53,673 bases of DNA from Escherichia phage mEp515: sequence record PP180003. One strand, given 5' to 3'. Shown piece by piece: positions 9,908 to 21,634 of the stretch. The notes beneath the pieces are model-generated. The model was not told the origin of the DNA and searched no databases. It saw only the letters and a list, made by a program, of their open reading frames with translations. Every line of letters starts with the position of its first letter. Position 1 is the stretch's first letter. The translations under genes were made by a program, and so were the position numbers.

Positions 9908-10162
9908 TCATTCCTCCGGCAATGCAATATCATAAATTTCGCCGTATTCGTCAGCGCGTTTAATGAATCCTTTGCGGATTAATGAGTTTAATGCGTCAAC
10001 AGTAGTATGCAGTGGCAGTTCGCACACTTTTGCGATCTCTTCGCGTGAAGTGTGTGCGCGGCCTTTGTTGTCTGCCTTTTCTGCAATCGCCATTAAGACA
10101 AGTTTTTGAATCGGGCTGTTAAGTTTTACGCTCCATGCTTTGCTAATTATGTTCATGCTCAT
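9908..10162 (-). CDS. Small HTH DNA-binding protein (HTH_36-like), first gene of leftward early operon
   Basis: 84 aa from ATG 10162 (AGGAG SD); LVLMAIAEKADNKGRAHTSREEIAKVCELPLHTTVDALNSLIRKGFI; alternative start at 10276 lacks SD. Confidence 0.5.
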   Translation of the reverse strand: MSMNIISKAWSVKLNSPIQKLVLMAIAEKADNKGRAHTSREEIAKVCELPLHTTVDALNSLIRKGFIKRADEYGEIYDIALPEE

Positions 10163-10467
10163 CGTGTTTTCTCCTATGGTTAGAGTGAACGCGCGGGCGG
10201 GTATCCCATTAGCATTAGATAGCAGTGACTGACCGCTCAACAGATCCCGCCATTGCGTGATATTTGTTTTTCGCATCGCAGCGACACCGGGTTTTTAAAG
10301 AGCTTAAGGCGTCGGCCTTTTTGTGCTTTCCCTTATCTTTTTCCTTGCGTCATTGCAAGTATGGCTTTACCTTGTCAGCAAGTTTACAGAATGGCGCTAA
10401 CAGGTCAAGGCTTGAAAAACACGTTTTGTGACTTGCATCAAACTTTTTTAGGTTATAGGGTAGCGAC
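10163..10467. promoter_or_regulatory. Immunity-region intergenic switch: divergent promoters/operators between cI-like repressor and leftward early operon
   Basis: 305-bp non-coding interval between divergent genes; TTGCAAG-type half-sites; candidate -35 TGACTT at 10429-10434. Confidence 0.4.
10272..10303 (-). promoter_or_regulatory. nutR-like element (boxA-like GCTCTTTAAAAA plus short hairpin) on leftward transcript
   Basis: Minus-strand reading AGCTCTTTAAAAACCCGGTGTCGCTGCGATGCG; 26/33 identical to plus-strand copy at 19470-19502. Confidence 0.3.
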
Positions 10468-11115
10468 ATGAAAACAAAATGGTATGACTTAGCAAAGCAG
10501 CTCATGCGGGCGCAGGGCATGAGTCAGGATTCATTGGCTGATCTCATGGGGATAACCAAAGGTGGCCTTTCGCACTGGCTGAACGGTCGCCGTGAGCCAA
10601 ATCTTGAAGATATTGCGCGGATCATGCGGGCGCTTGGGCGTCGGCAGTTTACTGTCACACATGACGGGATGGTTATCGATGATTCTGTTTCTAACACGTT
10701 ACCGGGAGCGCCACCGCGTGATTTAGGCAGTTACCCGGTTGTTGACTGGAAGGATGTAGCAAACAATATGGAAGGCACATGCCGATCAACATTGCCACAC
10801 ATTACTACTAGCGTTATTTGTTCGGATGATAGTTATTGGCTGGTTGCTAAAGGTGAATCAATGAACGCACCGCAGGGGTTAAGCATCCCGGCGGGGACTA
10901 TGATACTCGTTGACCCGCACGCGCCAGCTATTGACGGAAAACTTGTTATAGCACAACTGGAGGAAGGGCAGATACCTACGTTTAAACAGTTGATTATTGA
11001 TGGAGGCCGAAAACTTTTGCGTTCACTGAATCCGTTGTATCCGCCGATCCCTATGAATCCAGAATCAAAAATCATAGGCGTGGTGGTTGATGCGAAGATC
11101 GTAAACCTGCCATAA
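10468..11115 (+). CDS. cI-like repressor (HTH_XRE N-terminus, S24 LexA-like autopeptidase C-terminus)
   Basis: 215 aa; HTH MSQDSLADLMGITKGGLSHWLNGRREP; C-terminal GESM serine motif and downstream Lys. Confidence 0.8.
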   Translation: MKTKWYDLAKQLMRAQGMSQDSLADLMGITKGGLSHWLNGRREPNLEDIARIMRALGRRQFTVTHDGMVIDDSVSNTLPGAPPRDLGSYPVVDWKDVANNMEGTCRSTLPHITTSVICSDDSYWLVAKGESMNAPQGLSIPAGTMILVDPHAPAIDGKLVIAQLEEGQIPTFKQLIIDGGRKLLRSLNPLYPPIPMNPESKIIGVVVDAKIVNLP

Positions 11116-11120
11116 ACACT

Positions 11121-11146
11121 AGCCGCCGGATGGCGGCTTTTCTTTG
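11121..11146 (+). terminator. Rho-independent terminator after repressor gene
   Basis: AGCCGCC-GGAT-GGCGGCT hairpin followed by TTTCTTTG. Confidence 0.7.
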
Positions 11147-11238
11147 TCTGAAAAAACACCAAAACGTAAACAGAAAACGCTATTTATTGTTTAAATATCA
11201 ATAGCATATAAAATATTTTAAAAAAGTATACAAAATGG

Positions 11239-11267
11239 ATTGACTCGGTGTTTTACGGGGCGTATAT
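11239..11267 (+). promoter_or_regulatory. Strong sigma70-type promoter (pL-like) for rightward early operon
   Basis: -35 TTGACT (11239-11244), 17-bp spacer, -10 TATATT (11262-11267); TACAAAATGG motif abuts the -35. Confidence 0.6.
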
Positions 11268-11522
11268 TGCGAATCAAAGGAAGGGCGTAGGTAACAAAAG
11301 CAGCTTCCTGGCACTTTAAAAATCAGGCTTAACACCTTGTCAACCGTGGAGTAACTCCCCGATGGGGGACCGAAAGCGGCACTGATAACAAGGCGCATGG
11401 GGTGTTTAAAGCGTTACATCCCCCACGAAACCGCACGCAGGGCGACGAGTCAGCTTGCTTGGAGTGAGCAAGGTCACGCCGGGAACGGCGATGATTGCGG
11501 GATTAGTTGAAAGATGTTAAGC

Positions 11523-11560
11523 CGCTCATTAAAAATCTGGTCAGCCGCTGGAAGTGCGGC
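11523..11560 (+). promoter_or_regulatory. nutL-like site: boxA-like CGCTCATTAAAAA plus boxB-like hairpin GCCGC-TGGAAGT-GCGGC
   Basis: boxA differs by one base from lambda boxA CGCTCTTAAAAA (from memory); hairpin 9 nt downstream; sits between promoter and N-like gene. Confidence 0.4.
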
Positions 11561-11617
11561 AATTAACGAAGATGATTTTTTTATTAAGTATCATCAAGGA
11601 TATACGGAGATCAGATC

Positions 11618-11908
11618 ATGACAGTTACAATCATGTATGGCAAATGTGACAGTAAACTGAATGCCAGGGAACGCAGAAGAATAAAAAGAGAAAACGAAAG
11701 AAAATCATCACCTGCAATTAATAAAACGGACAATGTGGATAAAGCCATTCGCTTTGCAAACGAGGAAAGATGCAAACCCAATGGCATTAAAGAACGTCGC
11801 AAAGGAGCGGTAAAATGGTATACGGAAAATGAAAGCGGCAACTACTACCACGCAACGCAACCACGCCAGTTAGGGGAAAAACCCCTTGATAAAGTCCGCT
11901 ACCATTAA
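11618..11908 (+). CDS. N-like transcription antiterminator candidate (arginine-rich motif protein)
   Basis: 96 aa; N-terminal ARM NARERRRIKRENERK resembles lambda/P22 N RNA-binding motifs; first gene after pL-like promoter and nut-like site. Confidence 0.45.
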   Translation: MTVTIMYGKCDSKLNARERRRIKRENERKSSPAINKTDNVDKAIRFANEERCKPNGIKERRKGAVKWYTENESGNYYHATQPRQLGEKPLDKVRYH

Positions 11909-11938
11909 TACAAAATGTAAATAATCGGAGGTGACATT

Positions 11939-12061
11939 ATGGTTATCGAGGCGCTCAAATTCAAACTTGCGGTAGCGGAAATGCTTCATGATGCCGAAAT
12001 GTGGAGCGCCGCGAATAAAGCCTTATACGTAGTGTTAACAGCGAAGGAGATCAAAGAGTGA
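11939..12061 (+). CDS. Hypothetical small protein (40 aa)
   Basis: GGAGGTG SD; stop overlaps GTG start of erf. Confidence 0.3.
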   Translation: MVIEALKFKLAVAEMLHDAEMWSAANKALYVVLTAKEIKE

Positions 12062-12699
12062 AAACAGAGTTACACAAAAAGCTGTGGACGATTCAACAAA
12101 CGTTGAATGCGCCGAAAAATCAGCGTAATAATTTCGGTGGGTACAATTACAGGTCGGCGGAGGATATTTTAGAGGCGGTTAAGCCACTGCTTCAAAATAT
12201 CACGCTGACTGTTAGCGATGAAATCGTCCTGATCGGCAATCGCTATTATGTGAAGGCCACAGCTACGCTAAGCGACGGTGAAGATGAAATTGCGGTAACT
12301 GCTTACGCCAGGGAAGAAGAAAGCAAGAAGGGAATGGACGCAAGCCAGTTAACTGGCGCGACATCAAGTTATGCGCGGAAATACGCGTTGAACGGATTGT
12401 TCTGTATTGATGATGCGCGAGATCCTGATACTGACGCATACGCGAAGCAGACTGGCCAGCAGCCTCGCCAGCAGAAAAACACACCAAAACAACAACCACA
12501 GCAGCAGAAAGCGCCGCCAAATCCTGACGAGGTGTTAGCGCGTTTCTGTGATGCAGCAGCGAAAGCGCCTGACGCTAACAAGTTGCGCGAGATATTCGGG
12601 AAGTGCTGGAAGCTACTTCCTAAAGATTCAGAACAGCAACAGAAAGCTAAAGACGTTTATGATATTCGCTTAAAAGAGCTTAACGGGGAGATCGGTTAA
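12058..12699 (+). CDS. Erf-family single-strand annealing protein
   Basis: 213 aa; NFGGYNYRSAEDILEAVKPLLQNITL and low-complexity Q/P-rich linker typical of ERF; GTG start with AAGGAG SD. Confidence 0.7.
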   Translation: MKTELHKKLWTIQQTLNAPKNQRNNFGGYNYRSAEDILEAVKPLLQNITLTVSDEIVLIGNRYYVKATATLSDGEDEIAVTAYAREEESKKGMDASQLTGATSSYARKYALNGLFCIDDARDPDTDAYAKQTGQQPRQQKNTPKQQPQQQKAPPNPDEVLARFCDAAAKAPDANKLREIFGKCWKLLPKDSEQQQKAKDVYDIRLKELNGEIG

Positions 12700-13109
12700 T
12701 GAGCTTAAATTCAATTACGCTGGGCGGTAACGTTGGGAATGATTGCGAAACGAGATTTACATCAAACGGGAAAGCAATCGGTAGTTTCTCACTTGCTGTA
12801 CAACAAGGTTACGGTGATAACAAACGTGCAATGTGGGTAACGTGTTTAATATTAGGTGATAGAGCAACAAAATTAGCCGAACATATTAGGAAGGGGGATC
12901 ACCTGGTTGTAAGTGGTCGGTTGGATGTTAGGGATTGGGAAGGGCAGGACGGAAGAAAAAACAAATCAGTTGAGGTTATCGTGTCAGATATTGAATTTAT
13001 GAGCGGAAATAAACGCAGCGACCAAAACCAAAACAGACAACGCGAACAGCAACAACAATATAACCAGGATAACGGCGGGCAGGACTGCGACCAAGATATC
13101 CCATTTTAG
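12699..13109 (+). CDS. ssb: Single-stranded DNA-binding protein
   Basis: 136 aa; OB-fold N-terminus, Gln-rich tail ending in acidic DIPF motif. Confidence 0.85.
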   Translation: MSLNSITLGGNVGNDCETRFTSNGKAIGSFSLAVQQGYGDNKRAMWVTCLILGDRATKLAEHIRKGDHLVVSGRLDVRDWEGQDGRKNKSVEVIVSDIEFMSGNKRSDQNQNRQREQQQQYNQDNGGQDCDQDIPF

Positions 13110-13138
13110 CGAATATAATCAATTAGTTAGGTGTTATT

Positions 13139-13663
13139 ATGAGTAATGCCGAACCATTGAAAATATGTTGTACTTGCGGGGCACTATTGCCCCTTTCTTG
13201 TTTTCATAACGATAAGGGCAAGAAAGACGGCAAATCATGTAGATGTAAAGAGTGCGCCAAAAAAGCCACTAGAGAATGGAGTGAAGCGAATAAAGAAAGA
13301 AAAAAGAAAAATGATAGCGAATACGCAAAAACAGATAAAGCCAAAAAGAAAAGGGAAGAATACAGAAAATCGCAAAGAGGTAAAGAGATCGCGGCTGAAT
13401 CAAGAAAAAAATGGAATGAGAAAAACCCTAAAAAATACCACGCCCAAGTGATGGCACATAACGCTATCCGCGACGGCAAATTAATTAAACAACCTTGCGA
13501 AGTATGCGGCAGAGATGACCGCGTACACGCGCACCATTGCGATTATGATAAGCCGCTCGATGTTATGTGGCTTTGCCCGATATGCCATCGAGAGTGGCAC
13601 AACGAACACGGTGAAGGAGCTAATGCACACGACGAGGTATTAAGTGGTGAGCGAATATCTTAA
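13139..13663 (+). CDS. HNH endonuclease-like zinc-finger protein with lysine-rich region
   Basis: C-terminal CEVCGRDDRVHAHHCDYDKPLDVMWLCPICHREWH is an HNH signature; N-terminal CxxC pair. Confidence 0.5.
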   Translation: MSNAEPLKICCTCGALLPLSCFHNDKGKKDGKSCRCKECAKKATREWSEANKERKKKNDSEYAKTDKAKKKREEYRKSQRGKEIAAESRKKWNEKNPKKYHAQVMAHNAIRDGKLIKQPCEVCGRDDRVHAHHCDYDKPLDVMWLCPICHREWHNEHGEGANAHDEVLSGERIS

Positions 13664-13928
13664 AGCACCGCCACCGCCACCGCGAACAAAAGAACAAGTA
13701 TTAAAAGAAGCCCGTGATCATATCGATCATGGGCTTTTTTTATGCGGAACGGCGGCGGATCGAATGGCGAAAAGATTTAGTGACCTGTACGCAAAACAAA
13801 TATGGTTCGACAACTGGCAGGCAAGTTTTTACCCACTGCAAAGAAAACCGGATATGCATTGGCCTGAATATGTCGATCCACGTATGCGCAAATATCGCGG
13901 GCGTATGGGCCAGGTTATTAACGATTAA
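13644..13928 (+). CDS. Hypothetical protein (94 aa)
   Basis: GTG-start ORF overlapping upstream gene end. Confidence 0.4.
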   Translation: MVSEYLKAPPPPPRTKEQVLKEARDHIDHGLFLCGTAADRMAKRFSDLYAKQIWFDNWQASFYPLQRKPDMHWPEYVDPRMRKYRGRMGQVIND

Positions 13929-13942
13929 TGAGGTATTAAATC

Positions 13943-14167
13943 ATGATCGAAGATAAAGAAGTTGACGTAGAAATTCCTGACAGCGCTGATGAGCTTATCA
14001 CTTTCGGCGGCGGCCTGTATGAGTTCGATACATCGGCTGGGTGGGTTGATAAGTGGCCTCAGCCTACTCGCCAGGAATTAATTAACCGCAAATCATTCGG
14101 CGAAGATGCAGAACGCCTTGCTAATAACAAGTGGCTTAACAAGTTCATTGCGGAGGGTGATAAATGA
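13943..14167 (+). CDS. Hypothetical protein (74 aa)
   Basis: ORF in early operon. Confidence 0.45.
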   Translation: MIEDKEVDVEIPDSADELITFGGGLYEFDTSAGWVDKWPQPTRQELINRKSFGEDAERLANNKWLNKFIAEGDK

Positions 14168-14277
14168 ACCTTGCAAAAATTGCCGCATTGCTTGCGGCTT
14201 TGTCTATCGCTGTGCTGTATCTCAGCGTATCGCTTTATATAACGGTAGCGATCATTAAACTCATTGCTAACATGTGA
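14164..14277 (+). CDS. Small membrane peptide (37 aa, MNLAKIAALLAALSIAVLYLSVSLYITVAIIKLIANM)
   Basis: ATGA overlap with upstream stop; single TM helix. Confidence 0.3.
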   Translation: MNLAKIAALLAALSIAVLYLSVSLYITVAIIKLIANM

Positions 14278-14285
14278 GGTTAATC

Positions 14286-14405
14286 ATGAAAGTCGGTAAG
14301 GATATTGTGACGGTCGCGTTTTGCATTATTTGCTTCCTATTTGTGGTTGTGTTTTGTGGCGGATTTGCAGCGCTGGTTAGCTTTATTTTCAGGGGATTGT
14401 TGTGA
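14286..14405 (+). CDS. Small membrane peptide (39 aa, MKVGKDIVTVAFCIICFLFVVVFCGGFAALVSFIFRGLL)
   Basis: GAGG SD; hydrophobic; stop overlaps next start. Confidence 0.3.
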   Translation: MKVGKDIVTVAFCIICFLFVVVFCGGFAALVSFIFRGLL

Positions 14406-14677
14406 TGAAAACATGGGATGCAAAGACTGGTGATCTTGTTGTATTGCCTGAATATCGTGATGACCCTGGCCTGGTTGTACTGAATAAGATGTATAACGAT
14501 CTAGATCGCCCGCTAGTGGTTAAATACCTGGACGGAACAATCATAGAACCGCGCTACTTTGATGATATTGAACTGAAGGCCCGCAACGTTCGCGTTAAGC
14601 CGTTCCGGGCTTATGTTGAGGACCACTGGCGGAAATTGTTCGCCGGACTGAATGGGATGTACGGCGTATGGCTATAA
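14405..14677 (+). CDS. Hypothetical protein (90 aa)
   Basis: ORF, translationally coupled. Confidence 0.45.
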   Translation: MKTWDAKTGDLVVLPEYRDDPGLVVLNKMYNDLDRPLVVKYLDGTIIEPRYFDDIELKARNVRVKPFRAYVEDHWRKLFAGLNGMYGVWL

Positions 14678-14859
14678 AGGAAGTAAAGGTCAAAGACCTG
14701 AAAGGCGGTGAGCGATTAAAGGCGTGGTGGGGTCGCGAGTTTACAGCCGCTGCCTTCATGATCATGCAGGGCGGGGAGGTCGTTATATACGATGAAGACC
14801 TGAAGGAAGTCGGCAGGTGGCATCTTGAGCAATATATCGAGGTGTTAGATGAAAATTAA
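14668..14859 (+). CDS. Hypothetical protein (63 aa)
   Basis: ORF. Confidence 0.4.
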   Translation: MAIKEVKVKDLKGGERLKAWWGREFTAAAFMIMQGGEVVIYDEDLKEVGRWHLEQYIEVLDEN

Positions 14860-15181
14860 ATTCCATAAAGGTTATGATTCGGTCACTAACAAGTTATCGC
14901 TATTTATTGAGTTCGAGCGCCGGATCGTGGTTGTTCCTTATTCTCGGCGCTTTAATGATGCGGCAGGGCGGCGGCAATTCGCGTTAGACATGTTGTTACG
15001 TGGCTGCGGCCTTATGCGCCCGCTATCTGATTTGAAACGGATGATGCCGGGATCGTTCGGTCAGGTTGATGAAATAGAAATAAGCCCGGAAGAACTGAAG
15101 CGGGAGCGTGATTTATTCCTTTCAAGCGAAGGAAACCCGTTTAATTCAGAAACAGAAATGAAATGGCATCACCCACTATAA
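14849..15181 (+). CDS. Hypothetical protein (110 aa)
   Basis: ORF. Confidence 0.45.
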   Translation: MKIKFHKGYDSVTNKLSLFIEFERRIVVVPYSRRFNDAAGRRQFALDMLLRGCGLMRPLSDLKRMMPGSFGQVDEIEISPEELKRERDLFLSSEGNPFNSETEMKWHHPL

Positions 15182-15194
15182 AAGGATAAATATC

Positions 15195-15815
15195 ATGAAC
15201 GACATTAAAACAGCTTATTCACTAGGCAGCGATGGCATGTTAATCACTCGCTACACTGAAGACGCAAGTTTTCATGAAGTGGAAACGAAGGATTATCACG
15301 AAGTATTAAAAGATATGGAAGCTGGCGCGTATGACGCAGATTTGAATCTGGCTTTACAGATTGTTGATATTATGATGGACGCGTCGATCCGCGATTATGT
15401 GTCTTTAAACGCTGAAGAAAAAACGGCTGTGGCTCGTTATGTCTTCTGCCTAACTTTCGTGAAACGAATGGAAGAGGAATATGGGCGCGTGCCAGTGCCG
15501 GAAGAAATTGACCCGCTGGCGTTCGGAAGCGCTGTTATTTTCCCGTTAGATGAAAATCATACTGGTAGCGTTGCGCTGCATTCTATGCGCGGCGTAATGA
15601 AATGCATCTTTGAGGCTAAAGCGCTACAGAAGTGCATTGATGAAGGGCATGACGAAGAAGACGTAAAAGCGATCATGCCGTTGTTTTATGGCGAAATGGT
15701 TGGGAACAACATGCGCGCAAATGATTTAGGTGTGCAGGCTGCCATAACTGTACTTAACGAAGCGCGGAAAATGTCGCAGCCAATGCCGGAACCTGAAAAA
15801 CGTGTACTGCATTAA
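15195..15815 (+). CDS. Hypothetical acidic protein (206 aa)
   Basis: ORF; acidic composition; no motif recognised. Confidence 0.5.
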   Translation: MNDIKTAYSLGSDGMLITRYTEDASFHEVETKDYHEVLKDMEAGAYDADLNLALQIVDIMMDASIRDYVSLNAEEKTAVARYVFCLTFVKRMEEEYGRVPVPEEIDPLAFGSAVIFPLDENHTGSVALHSMRGVMKCIFEAKALQKCIDEGHDEEDVKAIMPLFYGEMVGNNMRANDLGVQAAITVLNEARKMSQPMPEPEKRVLH

Positions 15816-15820
15816 CATCG

Positions 15821-15880
15821 TGATTGCGATCACATAAATATACATTTTGTGTTGTGATCGCATATCCGTTTTGTAAACTG
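15821..15880. promoter_or_regulatory. Intergenic inverted repeat TGCGATCACA / TGTGATCGCA flanking a TACATTTTGT motif (candidate operator or internal promoter)
   Basis: 10-bp arms separated by about 18 bp containing TATACATTTTGT; lies upstream of ORF 15915. Confidence 0.35.
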
Positions 15881-15914
15881 AAATCAAAAGGTTTACGGCA
15901 CGGAGGAAAACAAG

Positions 15915-16133
15915 ATGGCAAGCGAATTAATGCTTTATTGTGTTGAAGGTGGCGTGGGACATGATGCCTACGTCGCCGGGAAAAGCTATCCAGCAGATGA
16001 AGTGCTTTCTAATATGCACTTCCGGGAAAATGAAAACCAGGTGTCTGTGTGGAAGCGATGCGTTGATGGCATTGAGGTAGTTAGCCTCGAAAGATATTTG
16101 GGTAAATTTGACTACGCATTGATCGAGGCTTAA
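15915..16133 (+). CDS. Hypothetical protein (72 aa)
   Basis: ORF with GGAGG SD. Confidence 0.45.
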   Translation: MASELMLYCVEGGVGHDAYVAGKSYPADEVLSNMHFRENENQVSVWKRCVDGIEVVSLERYLGKFDYALIEA

Positions 16134-16231
16134 CTATGGACGAAACATTGCTATTCATGTGCATTTGCTGGGGTTTTATTGCCTTATGCCTGTTTATCAG
16201 GTGGTTTATTGAATACCATATGAGGTGATAT

Positions 16232-16426
16232 ATGGAACAGAAAACTGATTATAGAATACCTGACAACCTGAAGTTAGTTGGCATTGGTTTTGGTTGTCGT
16301 TTTGTATCTGACGCAAACGGGGCGATTTATTTAGTGCGCATCATTGATGGCGTTCAACATATAAGAAGGCTAGGACTTTACATCAAAGCATTTAGAAGAG
16401 GTTATTTGAAAACTCATGAAATTTAA
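16232..16426 (+). CDS. Hypothetical protein (64 aa)
   Basis: ORF. Confidence 0.4.
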   Translation: MEQKTDYRIPDNLKLVGIGFGCRFVSDANGAIYLVRIIDGVQHIRRLGLYIKAFRRGYLKTHEI

Positions 16427-16619
16427 ACAGTATAAAGAATGGAAGATTCCAGAAGAAGCGACAAAGGCAGCGCCCGGAATTTTTTCGGGCGTTTATTTTT
16501 ATATGGGCGGTAAATGGTATTTCGGCAGCAGGCCGGATCACTATTATCAAGAATTATGCAAATCTCACACATGGGACATTAATGAACGCGTGCAAGGCGG
16601 TGTAATAGACGAGGTTTAA
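16416..16619 (+). CDS. Hypothetical protein (67 aa)
   Basis: ORF. Confidence 0.4.
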   Translation: MKFKQYKEWKIPEEATKAAPGIFSGVYFYMGGKWYFGSRPDHYYQELCKSHTWDINERVQGGVIDEV

Positions 16620-16620
16620 A

Positions 16621-16857
16621 ATGATTAATGGTTTTTTAAGCTGGTTAAGAGTGTGGTTTTTTGCCACGCTTTTCGTTTTTTTGGCGTTCAGCGGTGTCAT
16701 TGTCATATTTACGCTGGCGATGATGTTCATTACATGGTCAGTACCTGAATTTAACAATCTTGGAAGTATTTTTGCTGTCGCCCGCGCCATGTTTGCTTGT
16801 AGCGCATTTGTTGGTTTTTGTTGGAGTGTTTCGCCTGATTGGGATGATGAATGGTGA
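16621..16857 (+). CDS. Small membrane protein (two predicted TM helices)
   Basis: 78 aa; hydrophobic segments WFFATLFVFLAFSGVIVIFTLAMMFI and AMFACSAFVGFCW. Confidence 0.45.
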   Translation: MINGFLSWLRVWFFATLFVFLAFSGVIVIFTLAMMFITWSVPEFNNLGSIFAVARAMFACSAFVGFCWSVSPDWDDEW

Positions 16858-16861
16858 TCCT

Positions 16862-17095
16862 ATGGCCTTGTTCAATATGTCAGAACTGCAATTCAACGCC
16901 GTAAAAGCTGCCGCCCGCGCTGCACTTTCTGCTTGCAAAGCGGAGGTAGAGAAAAACGGCTACAGCGATAAAGCCACGCGGCTGATATTAGAAAAGCATT
17001 ATCGCAAGGTCGCCCCACTAATCAGCATTGAGCGCTTTGTGTGGTTGGTGGGGTATTTAAACAACCGTTGGGGGACGGAACAAGATTATTTCTAA
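16862..17095 (+). CDS. Hypothetical protein
   Basis: Start set at internal Met (MALFNMSELQ) to avoid overlap with preceding gene. Confidence 0.4.
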   Translation: MALFNMSELQFNAVKAAARAALSACKAEVEKNGYSDKATRLILEKHYRKVAPLISIERFVWLVGYLNNRWGTEQDYF

Positions 17096-17104
17096 GGGGG
17101 CGTA

Positions 17105-17644
17105 ATGAAAAATGATTTTGGAGGCAGCCACACTCCTAAGGAAATTAAAGATCTATGGCAGACGCCTAAACCAGTTTTCAGAGGAATGGACCGCGAATTT
17201 GAATTTGTCGCTGACGTGGCGGCAAACAAGGAAAATGCGCTAGTTCCTCGGTATATAACCGAAGAAATGGACACGTTGCATTATCCGTGGGGAGCTGTGG
17301 CAATGCCTGGTGAGTATGTCTGGCTTAATCCGCCATATTCTAAACCGGGGCCATTCGTTGAGAAGGCGGCATTAGAACATCAACGAAATCACATTGGCTG
17401 TGTAATGCTGTTGCCCGCTGACATTTCTGTTAGCTGGTTTATGAACGGCGTGGATACGGCAAACGAATGCCGATTAATCACGCGCGGGCGGCTGGCGTTT
17501 ATCAATGCTGCGACTGGTAAGCCAGTAAGCGGAAACAATAAAGGGAGCTTGTTTTTGATCTGGCATCCACGGTGCAGACATGAATGTATTTTTACACACA
17601 TAACACGTAAAGAGCTATACGCAAGAGGTGCAGATAATGACTAG
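17105..17644 (+). CDS. Phage N6-adenine DNA methyltransferase (Dam-like)
   Basis: 179 aa; catalytic NPPY motif (VWLNPPYSKPG); size and layout typical of phage orphan Dam methylases. Confidence 0.8.
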   Translation: MKNDFGGSHTPKEIKDLWQTPKPVFRGMDREFEFVADVAANKENALVPRYITEEMDTLHYPWGAVAMPGEYVWLNPPYSKPGPFVEKAALEHQRNHIGCVMLLPADISVSWFMNGVDTANECRLITRGRLAFINAATGKPVSGNNKGSLFLIWHPRCRHECIFTHITRKELYARGADND

Positions 17645-18134
17645 TGCAGCAGATTTACTACGAATCGCAGCGGAAACAATTGAGCAAAGAGGTAAACAAA
17701 ACGGCTACGACAGAAAAGAGGAAAAATCAGCGCCAAAAATAGCCACTATATACAACGCTAAGAAGGGCGCAAATTTAACCCCACTTGATGTATGGGATCT
17801 GATGATTTGTCTTAAGGAGGCGCGTTTAGAGGCTATTTTGGTTAATGGCAGCGATCCCACTGACACTTTGGTTGACCTAATCAGCTACAGCGCACTAAAA
17901 GCTGAGCAAATATTGAATGATCTGGATGAAGAGTTAAAGAAAAATCAGTTCACTGCCGCCAATATTAATGATGGAATAATAAATGACGCAGCAATAACAA
18001 GCTGTAAGGGATTGCCGCCTTCAATGCTTAAACCTCAGTGTGGCTGTATTTCAAATCGGCTTGATTTGAGTTTTGACAGATCTGAAGCTATTCGCGACAA
18101 GAGGTATGACCCAAATGAAAAAGGTGACAATTGA
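17637..18134 (+). CDS. Hypothetical protein (possible nucleotide pyrophosphohydrolase-like domain)
   Basis: ORF with AGAGGTG SD; functional guess is weak. Confidence 0.4.
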   Translation: MTSAADLLRIAAETIEQRGKQNGYDRKEEKSAPKIATIYNAKKGANLTPLDVWDLMICLKEARLEAILVNGSDPTDTLVDLISYSALKAEQILNDLDEELKKNQFTAANINDGIINDAAITSCKGLPPSMLKPQCGCISNRLDLSFDRSEAIRDKRYDPNEKGDN

Positions 18135-18618
18135 CAGGTTATTGGCCTGCGTTTATGTCGCCGTTTTCGTGATCATCAACCTAATTGTTAACCATTGCGG
18201 CCCGTGGGTGATTCCTATCACTACGGTAGCCGCTGTGTGTGTCAATATGATGATCCGCGACTTCCTGTTATATGACGGCGGTATCAAGTGGTCGGCGACA
18301 ACATGCGCCGCCGCTGGCGCAATCACTGTGCTGATAAATTACGACGCCGGAATGGTAGCGATCGCGTCATTTGTTGCGGTTGTTTCCGGTGCACTTATTT
18401 CTGGCGGCGTTTACCGGGTTTTACCTGGTGACTTTGATTCAAAACGATGGCCTGCAAATATAGCGTCAGCAATAGGCGATGCGTTGATTTTCCCTACGCT
18501 ATCGTTTATGGCATTCATGCCGGAAATATCAGCAATGCAATTCATATCCAAAATGGCGGCGGTAACGGTGATCACTATCATCATGCGCCGCTATTTTACG
18601 TTTGAGGGTAGAAAATGA
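18115..18618 (+). CDS. Integral membrane protein (4-5 predicted TM helices)
   Basis: Strongly hydrophobic segments throughout; start uncertain (18106 or 18115). Confidence 0.5.
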   Translation: MKKVTIDRLLACVYVAVFVIINLIVNHCGPWVIPITTVAAVCVNMMIRDFLLYDGGIKWSATTCAAAGAITVLINYDAGMVAIASFVAVVSGALISGGVYRVLPGDFDSKRWPANIASAIGDALIFPTLSFMAFMPEISAMQFISKMAAVTVITIIMRRYFTFEGRK

Positions 18619-19373
18619 GCAGGGGTAAACATTGGTTTAATAATTGGCTTAGAAATTGGGTCGTTTGGTCGTTGTACGACGGCAGCGGGTACGCCGTCAA
18701 AGATTGGGCGGAAGCAGGATATAAGTGCTATTGCTTCAACTATGACGGCGCAAATCACGGCGATTATGAAGGCGTTAAAATCATTCATCCAAATATTGAA
18801 TACGTTAACGTATGGATTGACAGTCACTTCCTGGTGATGTTCTCGCCTGAACTGTCAGTTTACCCAGATCCTGATATTATCCTGGGCTTCCCGCCGTGCG
18901 ACGATCTCGCCGTGTCTGGCGCTCGCTGGTTCGCTGATAAACGGAAAAAAGATCCTGACTTCCAGGTGAAGGCGGCGAATAGCGCAAAACTGGTAGAAAA
19001 ACTGGCGGATATGCACAACGTGCCGTGGATGGTGGAAAATCCGGTGGGAGCACTGTCAACGCTATGGCGCAAACCTGATTTTATTTTCAACCCTTGCGCT
19101 TACGGTGGCTACCTGCCGGAAGACGACAAACATCCTGCTTTCCCTGATGTTTACCCTGCGCGCGACGCGTATACAAAGAAAACTTGCATATGGTGCGGCA
19201 ACGGATTCAAACAGCCGCTTTTTAGACCTGTAGATCTTAACTCTGGCGATAACCCTGGGTGGGCGAAAACCGGAGGCAGGACGAAACGAACAAAGATGAT
19301 CCGCTCACTAACTCCGCGTGGCTTTGCCCGTGCTGTATTCCTGGCTAACCATAACAGCGCTTTACCGGACTGA
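18615..19373 (+). CDS. DNA (cytosine-5) methyltransferase-like protein, short and atypical
   Basis: 252 aa; motif-IV-like GFPPCDD (Pro-Cys) and motif-VI-like WMVENPVG (ENV); no target-recognition domain at this length. Confidence 0.4.
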   Translation: MSRGKHWFNNWLRNWVVWSLYDGSGYAVKDWAEAGYKCYCFNYDGANHGDYEGVKIIHPNIEYVNVWIDSHFLVMFSPELSVYPDPDIILGFPPCDDLAVSGARWFADKRKKDPDFQVKAANSAKLVEKLADMHNVPWMVENPVGALSTLWRKPDFIFNPCAYGGYLPEDDKHPAFPDVYPARDAYTKKTCIWCGNGFKQPLFRPVDLNSGDNPGWAKTGGRTKRTKMIRSLTPRGFARAVFLANHNSALPD

Positions 19374-19470
19374 AATTTACAAAATGGCGTCATTGCGTGA
19401 TATGGATCACATAATGGCGCTTTTCACCTTGTTATGACGTATCCATTTTGTATACTTCAAACAAGCAAAA

Positions 19471-19503
19471 TGCTCTTTAAAAATCCGGCAGCGCTGAAAT
19501 GCG
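19471..19503 (+). promoter_or_regulatory. Second plus-strand nut-like element (boxA-like GCTCTTTAAAAA plus hairpin GCGC-TGAAAT-GCGT)
   Basis: 26/33 identical to the minus-strand element at 10272-10304; hairpin start resembles P22 boxB GCGCUGA (from memory). Confidence 0.3.
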
Positions 19504-19532
19504 TAGAAATCACCTGAAAAGGAGAGAGCATT

Positions 19533-19709
19533 ATGCCTTTTGATAATTACCAATGGCATGACGACTATGAACGAGAAAGCGTCATGCGTGCAATGTGCAA
19601 TGTATGCAGCACGAAGAAAGGAGACTGCAACGAGTGCAACGAATGTTTAGATCATTGGCTAAGGGCCGGACACGCCGAAAGGCTGAACGAAACAGAGAAT
19701 CAAAAATAA
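19533..19709 (+). CDS. Small Cys-rich protein (58 aa)
   Basis: Strong AAGGAG SD; CNVC...CNECNEC putative zinc ligands. Confidence 0.35.
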   Translation: MPFDNYQWHDDYERESVMRAMCNVCSTKKGDCNECNECLDHWLRAGHAERLNETENQK

Positions 19710-19723
19710 TCGGGGTGGTTTTT

Positions 19724-20329
19724 ATGCAAAACCCTAAAAAACCCATACGACGCCGTTGCAAATGCTGCGGCGTTTTTTTTGAGCCTAAATATCACAATCA
19801 AACGTGGTGCAGTGATGAATGTCTGGAAGAACTGAAGTTTGACCAGCTATGCCGCGACCGAGAAAAGGCTATGAAGGCTATGGAACGGAAGAAACGCCGC
19901 GACAGCCAGCGTGAGGAACGCAACCGGAAACGTAAACAGTTAAATCCGCGCAGCTACTGGATTAAACAGGCGCAAAACGTGTTTAACGCATATATTCGCG
20001 AACGTGACGCAGGACAGCCGTGTATATCTTGCGGGACTTATTATTACGAACAATGCGGCGCTGATGCTGGACACTGGCGCACAGTAGCGGCAGCCGGACA
20101 CCTTCGCTTTAACGAGGATAACGTAAACCTACAATGCCGACATTGCAATCAGGTATTAGACGGCAATGTAGAGTTATACAGAATAAATTTAATAAAAAAA
20201 ATAGGATTAGAAAGGGTGGAGGCATTAGAAAATAATAACGAGACTCACAAATGGACGATAGAAGAATGTAAGGAAATCATAAAAGTCTATCAGGCTAAAT
20301 TGGACGCCTTAAGGAGAAAGGCGGCATGA
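19724..20329 (+). CDS. ninG: NinG / Rap-like recombination endonuclease
   Basis: Start at internal ATG (MQNPKK); PRSYWIKQAQNVFNAYIRERD, PCISCG, GHWRTVAAAGHLRFNE, HKWTIEECKEI closely track lambda NinG as I recall it. Confidence 0.85.
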   Translation: MQNPKKPIRRRCKCCGVFFEPKYHNQTWCSDECLEELKFDQLCRDREKAMKAMERKKRRDSQREERNRKRKQLNPRSYWIKQAQNVFNAYIRERDAGQPCISCGTYYYEQCGADAGHWRTVAAAGHLRFNEDNVNLQCRHCNQVLDGNVELYRINLIKKIGLERVEALENNNETHKWTIEECKEIIKVYQAKLDALRRKAA

Positions 20330-20733
20330 ATGAATATTCTTTTAGCCTGCCTTACCCGCCATCGAACAATCGCTATTACCGACATTCTCGCGGTTTTCAC
20401 TATATTAGCAAAGTGGGGAAGGAATACAGGGAACAAGTAAGAGACATCATCGAGCTATTAAATTTAAACATCAACCTATCTTGCCGACTGGCAATAACTA
20501 TTCATGCCGCGCCGCCTGATAACCGGATCAGAGATCTGGATAATATCCCAAAATGCCTTTTTGATAGCCTTACTTACGCCGGATTCTGGACCGACGACGG
20601 ACAAATCGATTCTATAAAAATTGTTCGCTGCCGGAAGGTGAAAGGCGGGCGATTGTTTATTAAGGTGCGCGAGCGCGGCGACCTGTTACCGGATATTGGC
20701 GAATACGAAACTAATATATGGGGTGAGAAATGA
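20326..20733 (+). CDS. rusA: RusA-family Holliday junction resolvase
   Basis: 135 aa; LPYPPSNNRYYRH, RDLDNIPKCLFDSLTYAGFWTDDGQI, GGRLFIKV match the RusA signature. Confidence 0.9.
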   Translation: MNEYSFSLPYPPSNNRYYRHSRGFHYISKVGKEYREQVRDIIELLNLNINLSCRLAITIHAAPPDNRIRDLDNIPKCLFDSLTYAGFWTDDGQIDSIKIVRCRKVKGGRLFIKVRERGDLLPDIGEYETNIWGEK

Positions 20734-20912
20734 AAAACGAAATTAAAGATCTGCAAATAGATATTCAGCGCGACGAGCTTGATTTAGCTACAGTCAGGCA
20801 AATCCAGGCTTTCCACATGAGAGAATTGCTTGCGCTGAAAGAGCTTGAAAGAAAGTTGGTCCAGTCAATATCTGATCGCAAAAGACTGGTTGCGCGTTAC
20901 GGGGGTAAATAA
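20730..20912 (+). CDS. Hypothetical protein (60 aa)
   Basis: ORF, coupled. Confidence 0.4.
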   Translation: MKNEIKDLQIDIQRDELDLATVRQIQAFHMRELLALKELERKLVQSISDRKRLVARYGGK

Positions 20913-21634
20913 TGAATTTGGAATCTATTCTTAAATTCCATTTCCCAAAGTCACCGCGTTTGTCAGATGAAAGCCGTGGAACATCACCTGATGCACTTAA
21001 TACTACTGATGCACTAACCGCCGCAGGTATGGCGCAATCTCGCGTAGAGCTTGGATATAGCGCTTTTTTAGGGAAGATGGAACTATCACAAGCCGAAAAA
21101 CATAAGGCCGTAGTTTTGCTTATAGAGCGTTTAAAGGCTATGGCAAAAGATTATAAATACGTTATGGAACTGGACGAGGCACAACGCAATGATCTCATTA
21201 TTCTTGTTGCCGTTTTTGCGTTTCGGGATTATTGCCAGAGTGCCGCGACGGAAAAAACTTGCATGGAGTGCGGCGGATATAAATTTACGTTTGACGAATA
21301 CGGTGAAAAACACCTTTGTAAAAAATGCAAGGGGCATGGGACAGTTCGCAATCATTGTAAACAATGCAAGGGCCGTGGCGAAGTACCGGACAAAGCAGCC
21401 AGCGAAGCGACGGAAATGCCAGTATTCAAAACGTGCCAGCATTGCGGCGGGCGCGGTTACTCGCGTTTCCCAGTAGATCTTGTTCGGCAGGCGGTTAATC
21501 AGCTTGTTTTCCCTGTAAGCCGATCAACATGGTGGAAGAAATACAGGGTTTTCTATGAAGACGCCATAGTGGAGCTATTCAAAGAAGAATCTCGCGCGGA
21601 AAGCGAAATCAAACGAGTGACACGGGGTGAATAA
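20912..21634 (+). CDS. Q-like late antiterminator candidate with DnaJ-type zinc finger
   Basis: 240 aa; four CxxCxGxG repeats (CMECGGYK, CKKCKGHG, CKQCKGRG, CQHCGGRG); follows ninG/rusA as Q does in lambdoid phages, but 1.9 kb from the lysis cassette. Confidence 0.4.
   Translation: MNLESILKFHFPKSPRLSDESRGTSPDALNTTDALTAAGMAQSRVELGYSAFLGKMELSQAEKHKAVVLLIERLKAMAKDYKYVMELDEAQRNDLIILVAVFAFRDYCQSAATEKTCMECGGYKFTFDEYGEKHLCKKCKGHGTVRNHCKQCKGRGEVPDKAASEATEMPVFKTCQHCGGRGYSRFPVDLVRQAVNQLVFPVSRSTWWKKYRVFYEDAIVELFKEESRAESEIKRVTRGE

Follow-up and report, generated by a model that had tools for sequence, protein, structure and literature searches.

The boxA-plus-hairpin elements of Escherichia phage mEp515 as nutL and nutR2 of the mEp021-type early antitermination system

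The closest described counterparts of the elements considered here, two boxA-plus-hairpin copies on opposite strands of Escherichia phage mEp515 (sequence record PP180003, a stretch of 53,673 nucleotides called the window below), are the nut sites of coliphage mEp021. As summarised in PMC11893012 (Negrete-Mendez et al., 2025), which cites the experimental study (Valencia-Toxqui et al., 2023, Arch Virol 168:92), the mEp021 protein Gp17 mediates early antitermination through three such sites: nutL upstream of the repressor gene gp15, nutR1 upstream of gp17 itself, and nutR2 downstream of the methyltransferase gene. By the same account, nutL and nutR2 are the most similar pair of the three, and the read-through of terminators in mEp021 depends on both Gp17 and Nus factors (PMC11893012). 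This three-site Gp17 system has been demonstrated for mEp021, and its conservation has already been shown for 48 members of the mEp-immI group, which comprises Nus-dependent, non-lambdoid temperate coliphages from human faeces (Negrete-Mendez et al., 2025).

The first 25 kb of the mEp515 window are colinear from base 1 with mEp021 (MH706966; 92% coverage, 98.4% identity), the window and the mEp021 GenBank record share their starting base, and phages mEp554, mEp010, mEp044, and mEp013 are 90-92% identical to it. Judged from these alignments, the 53.7-kb window is evidently the complete genome of a member of the mEp-immI (mEp021-type) group. The minus-strand element is, with high confidence, the nutL site of a temperate coliphage of this type, and the plus-strand element its nutR2 site. 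Their mEp021 counterparts fall where the published descriptions place the nut sites, in MH706966 at ∼10970-11001 for nutL, flanked by gp14 and gp15, ∼12225 for nutR1, and ∼20172-20206 for nutR2, flanked by gp33 and gp34. Between the two phages nutR2 is identical over 35 nt, while nutL matches at 33/35 positions and nutR1 at 37/38. The nutL differences are a T>C change in the spacer and an A>U change of the loop-closing base, the latter unique to mEp515 among the 53 sequences compared, and the boxA of nutR1 contains AAAAA in mEp515 as against AACAA in mEp021. Because the feature has been published and experimentally characterised in a near-identical phage, it is already known, and nutL and nutR2 of mEp515 represent a rediscovery of known sites rather than a new system. 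The layout of three nut-like sites proposed in the preliminary description agrees with the published nutL, nutR1, and nutR2: its site near 11523 is nutR1, and the plus-strand site, placed before the ninG/rusA/Q-like genes, occupies the published position of nutR2. Its label of "nutR-like" for the minus-strand site does not stand, the name in the literature being nutL; functionally, this site heads the replication-gene operon, as lambda nutR does.

The starting observation was a pair of 33-base repeats with a claimed identity of 26/33, which is the value returned by direct string comparison. The minus-strand copy, AGCTCTTTAAAAACCCGGTGTCGCTGCGATGCG, lies at 10272-10304, exactly where it had been placed, and the plus-strand copy, TGCTCTTTAAAAATCCGGCAGCGCTGAAATGCG, has the sequence given for it but is found at 19471-19503, one base away from the earlier 19470-19502. 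The proposed anatomy, a boxA followed by a 4-bp-stem hairpin with a UG..AU loop, is borne out in both copies; the two hairpins are minimum-free-energy structures, and their fourth base pair requires one base outside the 33-mers. The complete nutL site spans 10269-10303 on the minus strand (52.9 bits, E 8.6e-12 with the covariance model described below). Its boxA, GCTCTTTAAAAA, is an exact match at 10292-10303 that is invariant in all related loci reaching this position, and its boxB-like hairpin at 10271-10284, UCGC-U-GCGA-U-GCGA, joins a 4-bp stem to a GNRA loop flanked by U and U and is supported by covariation. The complete nutR2 site spans 19472-19506 on the plus strand (51.8 bits, E 1.6e-11) and is the copy identical to that of mEp021. 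It begins with the same exact boxA, GCTCTTTAAAAA, at 19472-19483, conserved in relatives, and continues to the hairpin GCGC-U-GAAA-U-GCGU at 19491-19504, whose loop UGAAAU is invariant in relatives and whose stem variants, CCGC/GCGG and ACGC/GCGU, retain pairing. The third site, nutR1, lies at 11524-11561 on the plus strand (48.9 bits) and combines the boxA GCTCATTAAAAA with the hairpin GCCGC-U-GGAAG-U-GCGGC at 11544-11560.

Alignment of 28 distinct variants gives a common layout: a 12-nt boxA, the sequence YCNGG, two to five variable bases, a stem of 4-5 bp, U, the loop, U or A, and the returning stem, with a spacer of ∼7-10 nt between boxA and hairpin. All nutR2 copies, and nutR1 of the divergent subgroup, have the loop GAAA, and nutL has GCGA, with GUGA and GCAA in single variants; the GGAAG loop of mEp021-type nutR1 is the sole exception to the GNRA rule. 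On either side of the loop, most nutL copies and one nutR1 have U and A, which can pair; all other sites have U on both sides. A degenerate 32-mer spanning both copies matches the window twice, at these sites only, and matches none of 100 dinucleotide-preserving shuffles. The boxA 12-mer GCTCTTTAAAAA alone is not rare when mismatches are allowed (7 matches at ≤2 mismatches in the window against 8.3 expected), and for this reason the significance of the sites rests on boxA, spacer, and hairpin combined. Both exact boxA copies and both one-mismatch copies (at 11311 and 11524) nevertheless fall within early control regions.

Support for the hairpins is drawn from covariation; thermodynamic stability was discarded as evidence because the z-scores lie near 0. 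Within the stems, 97.5% of the aligned cells form standard pairs, compared with 82.5% in column shuffles and 16-62% when partners are slid, and three of the five stem pairs show changes on both sides. The covariation score of 0.368, against 0.106 for the shuffled columns, was reached by none of 500 shuffles, and RNAalifold independently gives the same helix. Across relatives, nutR1 alone has six stem sequences (GCCGC, GCUAC, UGCAC, UCGC, and GCAC among them, with their partners), all of which are paired. A covariance search for boxA and boxB had been suggested as a check, and the model built on the nut alignment finds exactly three strong matches in 53.7 kb, the sites scored above, the next being 13.6 bits at 11311. 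Since the training alignment included the three sites of mEp515 itself, this search shows the absence of further sites in the window and is not an independent detection of the three. The 13.6-bit match is an orphan boxA-like copy, GCACTTTAAAAATCAGG, at 11311-11327 on the plus strand, without a boxB hairpin and 43 nt past the -10 hexamer of the pR-like promoter described below. A search of Rfam with the 8-24 kb region at a permissive E-value returned no nut, boxA, or boxB family, only sub-threshold chance matches.

Conservation in related phages had been named beforehand as a further check, and 49 of 53 sources keep all three sites with order and orientation unchanged, the remaining four being contigs that end before the missing site. 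These sources comprise 43 IMG/VR loci found through Gp17, 8 loci found through divergent Gp17 homologues (69-73% identity), mEp021, and mEp515. Exact-pattern scans of IMG/VR matched only contigs of the mEp-immI group, to which this type of nut site appears to be confined in that database. In the GTDB species representatives, the pattern scan picked out nothing beyond an rrn-like boxA in Sodalis and a coding-region match due to chance, and the nutR2 region is present in 32 of 5,426 complete E. coli genomes. The surroundings of nutR1 are themselves polymorphic. A 213-nt segment carrying a small gp16-like open reading frame (ORF; 11398-11511) separates the orphan boxA (11311-11327) from the nutR1 boxA (11524), and at least 10 relatives (loci L002, L007, L044, L051, and L052, for example) lack it, their only nutR1 carrying the rrn boxA unchanged, TGCTCTTTAACAATCTGG; the segment is thus seen as an insertion bounded by two boxA copies. 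Inside it lies another hairpin, GCTTGCT-TGGAGTG-AGCAAG (11453-11473), whose loop resembles the nutR1 loop UGGAAGU; in the L045 subgroup this hairpin differs by several compensatory changes (GATCACT-TGGATTG-AGTGGT).

The presumed protein partner of these sites, the N-like antiterminator Gp17, is encoded at 11618-11908 on the plus strand. It is a 96-aa protein, 100% identical to mEp021 Gp17, with the arginine-rich motif (ARM) NARERRRIKR. Homologues with as little as 65% identity all retain the ARM residues N15, A16, R17, R20, K23, and R24, the mEp515 protein has the residues R17, R19, R20, R21, and R24 named in PMC11893012, and every relative encodes a Gp17 in which the ARM is conserved. The family is narrow: in a database of 5.8 billion proteins it is represented by 52 clusters at ≥63% identity over near-full-length matches, three matches being partial fragments, and all matches that carry organism names are from E. 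coli or Caudoviricetes. A tblastn search of Gp17 against 50,697 phage records at E ≤ 10 found mEp-group phages only and no lambda, P22, or phage 21 N, and a sequence search of the PDB gave chance matches only, with no N-peptide structure.

Taken together with the published work on mEp021, the interpretation of the elements as boxA-plus-hairpin nut sites, in anatomy and role alike, is supported, and N-type processive antitermination is the best-supported reading of their sequence. On this reading, the sites would act as RNA on each early transcript as it emerges. The boxA segment GCUCUUUAAAAA, one base off the E. coli rrn boxA GCUCUUUAACAA, would recruit the host NusB/NusE proteins, while the hairpin 7-10 nt downstream, with its U-GNRA-U/A loop, would be bound by the ARM of Gp17; Gp17, together with NusA and NusG, would then convert RNA polymerase to a terminator-resistant form. 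Polymerase modified at nutL would read the leftward replication-gene operon, and polymerase modified at nutR1 or nutR2 would read rightward through the hairpins at 14182, 16469, and 19387 to ninG, rusA, and Q. The promoters and terminator-like hairpins that frame this scheme are consensus matches only. A predicted pL-like promoter, TTGACC-16-TAAACT, lies at 10381-10408 on the minus strand, 78 nt upstream of the nutL boxA, with both hexamers conserved in 33 sequence variants, and a predicted pR-like promoter, TTGACT-17-TATATT, lies at 11240-11268 on the plus strand (10/12 in the consensus scan) and is conserved in distant relatives. The plus-strand hairpins at 14182-14198 and 16469-16493 were found by the scan and correspond to TERM_2 and TERM_3 of the mEp021 annotation; that at 19387-19420, just upstream of nutR2, corresponds to the predicted mEp021 terminator TERM_4 (t4) and is also seen in the fold (region z = -3.5), its arms being invariant and its loop hypervariable.

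Several points weigh against this assignment. The match to the published nut coordinates rests on the position descriptions in PMC11893012, whose supplements do not contain the nut sequences, and the dependence on Gp17 and Nus belongs to the literature on mEp021, the evidence on the mEp515 sites being that of sequence. Thermodynamically the nutL and nutR2 hairpins are weak, their stability not exceeding that of shuffled sequence (z about 0). The loop-closing base of nutL is U in mEp515 and A in the other 52 sequences, so that the U-A pair is lost; nutR2 naturally carries U/U loop flanks, which is the same arrangement as in mEp515 nutL. Gp17 matches no Pfam family and has no detectable similarity to lambda N (BLASTP E = 31), and on this account the assignment of binding partners, that is, which factor would bind which part of the nut site, is made by analogy with lambda N.

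With lambda nut and N, the mEp system shares the order of boxA, short spacer, and small hairpin with a G-purine-rich loop, the location on early transcripts downstream of repressor-controlled promoters, and a small, basic, ARM-containing partner protein together with Nus dependence (PMC11893012). The mEp sites have the bipartite structure that defines the lambda-type class, a boxA and a boxB with a GNRA-like loop (GCGA, GAAA, GUGA, GCAA, or GGAAG), lying past predicted early promoters and before terminator-like hairpins. The differences are equally plain. Lambda nutL reads CGCTCTTAAAAATTAAGCCCTGAAGAAGGGC, and lambda has two nut sites, whereas the mEp group has three; the lambda boxA is CGCTCTTA, in contrast to the 12-nt rrn-type boxA of the mEp group; and lambda carries a GAAGA/GAAAA pentaloop on a 5-bp GCCCU/AGGGC stem, as opposed to the four loop bases of U-GNRA-U/A, or GGAAG, in mEp phages. 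The gene order also differs from that of lambda, in that the N-like gene belongs to the operon leading on to Q, and the replication genes to the opposite one. Applied to lambda, the mEp covariance model scores only 6.7 bits at nutL and 3.4 bits at nutR. Given these scores, the BLASTP and Pfam results, and the restriction of tblastn matches to mEp phages, the mEp system, although it works like lambda N/nut, is not detectably homologous to it in sequence.

The boxA itself is close to that of the ribosomal operons. The E. coli rrn boxA is GCUCUUUAACAA or GCTCTTTAACAA, and its core is almost identical to GCTCTTTAAAAA, agreeing at 11/12 positions in nutL and nutR2 and at 12/12 in nutR1 of relatives; the Sodalis chromosomal boxA, TGCTCTTTAACAATCTGG, is likewise rrn-like. 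The rrn system (NusB/NusE/NusA/NusG, SuhB) needs no phage protein and has no boxB-type hairpin directly 3' of boxA. In P22, boxB reads GCGCUGACAAAGCGC, with a CGCU...AGCG stem and a G-A-rich loop as in mEp021-type nutL (UCGCUGCGAAGCGA), and the ARM of the gp24 (N) protein, GNAKTRRHERRRK, resembles the NARERRRIKR of Gp17; unlike the mEp sites, P22 boxB has a pentaloop with an extruded base.

The rrn likeness raises the question of whether boxA might act alone, through NusB, NusE, NusA, and NusG and without a phage protein, the hairpins being incidental. The boxA is indeed of rrn type (GCTCTTTAAAAA, and exactly TGCTCTTTAACAA in nutR1 of several relatives), and the orphan boxA at 11311 is conserved without a hairpin. 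Between paralogous and orthologous sites, however, the hairpins differ by compensatory changes and keep a U-GNRA-U/A loop, every relative has a Gp17 with a conserved ARM, and Gp17-dependent antitermination at these sites is reported in the account of mEp021 (PMC11893012), all of which makes a boxA-only mode very improbable. Still less credence, indeed almost none, can be given to the view that the similarity reflects chance or a historical duplication without present function, or that the sites are DNA operators rather than RNA elements. That neither hairpin exceeds shuffled sequence in stability would fit such a view, but no chance matches are expected for the combined pattern, position and transcribed strand are strictly conserved in 49 of 53 sources, the covariation preserves RNA pairing and not DNA sequence, and the sites are not palindromic as DNA beyond the small stem.

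A more substantial alternative concerns nutR2, which could head a third early unit with a promoter and regulation of its own (19429-19456, nutR2, ninF, ninG, rusA, and Q), the t4 region then being a group of sites bound by regulators, in place of or in addition to a terminator. A predicted promoter-like site, TTGTTA-16-TATACT (9/12 in the consensus scan), lies 16 nt before the nutR2 boxA, at 19429-19456 on the plus strand; it is preserved in 11 diverse loci, while neighbouring spacer bases vary. In form, its -10 region, CCATTTTGTATACT, agrees with that of the pL-like promoter, CCATTCTGTAAACT, the two having the motif CCATTyTGTAwACT in common. The core of this motif, ACAAAATGG, is found 12 times in the window where 1.0 is expected, mostly in intergenic sequence. 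Four alternating copies or near-copies, among them the two arms of the t4 hairpin, take up 19376-19455; t4 itself has a short U-tract, which is broken in mEp021 (CTATTC). On the other side, promoter matches of 9/12 are as frequent in shuffled sequence (25 found, 27.5 expected), PMC11893012 places nutR2 in the rightward early antitermination scheme and names no such promoter there, and the conservation of the 19429-19456 region could also reflect the terminator hairpin. An independent third unit is accordingly regarded as unlikely, and it is with the same reserve that nutR2 may be placed ∼10 nt into a third early transcript, started from the conserved promoter-like site within the ACAAAATGG motif cluster at 19376-19455, rather than acting as a booster of the pR operon. 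Under either reading nutR2 is a genuine nut site.

The motif is a candidate operator or promoter element in its own right. In the form T(A/T)(T/C)ACAAAATGG it is found at 2378, 6065, 10383, 11227, 15866, 19376, 19443, 37410, 37438, 42322, 51965, and 51996, among other positions. The 12-mer has 13 copies at ≤1 mismatch compared with 0.9 expected, and of 15 copies at least 10 fall in no ORF of ≥70 aa. At the pL-like promoter a copy extends over the -10 hexamer, at the pR-like promoter one sits directly next to the -35 hexamer, and others flank or form the t4 hairpin. PMC11893012 neither defines repressor operators nor describes this motif.

The gene context is that of the mEp021 annotation. The rightward order runs from the repressor through a terminator hairpin and the pR-like promoter to gp17, erf, ssb, further genes, the methyltransferase gene, a ninF-like gene, NinG, RusA, and Q. 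The CI-type repressor gene occupies 10468-11115 on the plus strand (Pfam HTH_3 and Peptidase_S24) and is followed by the terminator hairpin at 11121-11138; the methyltransferase gene lies at 18615-19373, also rightward (Pfam; mEp021 annotation). Downstream of nutR2, the genes at 19533-21634 on the plus strand encode the ninF-like protein, NinG (Pfam E 8e-65), RusA (8e-15), a 60-aa ORF, and the Q antiterminator (20912-21634; Antiterm, 1e-29), in agreement with the mEp021 annotation. The leftward operon begins downstream of nutL with a gene for a small helix-turn-helix (HTH) protein at 9908-10162 on the minus strand (Pfam HTH_36, E 7.7e-8) and continues with replication genes (Pfam; mEp021 annotation). 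A mechanically called 122-aa ORF (9908-10276) starts inside the nutL hairpin, where the loop-closing A>T change at 10275 creates an ATG (10274-10276). It was rejected as a gene start because this ATG occurs only in mEp515, relatives reading GCGAAGCG, and because the conserved ribosome binding site (AGGAG) and ATG sit at 10162, from which the actual leftward gene encodes an 84-aa HTH_36 protein.

Two structures adjoin nutL. A small hairpin, AAGG(C)...(G)CCTT, at 10306-10319 lies directly 5' of the nutL boxA in the minus-strand RNA, with a stem that is conserved and a loop that varies in relatives; read on the plus strand, the same segment resembles an intrinsic terminator (a stem, then TTTTGTGCTTT) aimed at the repressor gene. 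On the other side, the leader of ∼105 nt between nutL and the first leftward gene (10163-10268, minus strand) is almost invariant across 33 sequence variants and contains a long-range stem between GGCGGG (10246-10251) and CCCGCC (10196-10201), for which locus L042 has a compensatory change (GGCTGG/CCAGCC). This leader is possibly an RNA-processing or Rho-related site.

To the published description of the mEp021 system, the present analysis adds evidence from covariation for the boxB stem and the U-GNRA-U/A loop rule across nutL, nutR1, and nutR2, a boxA-duplicating indel polymorphism at nutR1, and a range that seems limited to the mEp-immI group in IMG/VR. It also adds an intergenic motif that offers a hint of the possible regulation of the three early regions. 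If the ACAAAATGG motif is the operator of a Rep021-type repressor or of another phage regulator, three regulated early promoters would explain the presence of three nut sites.

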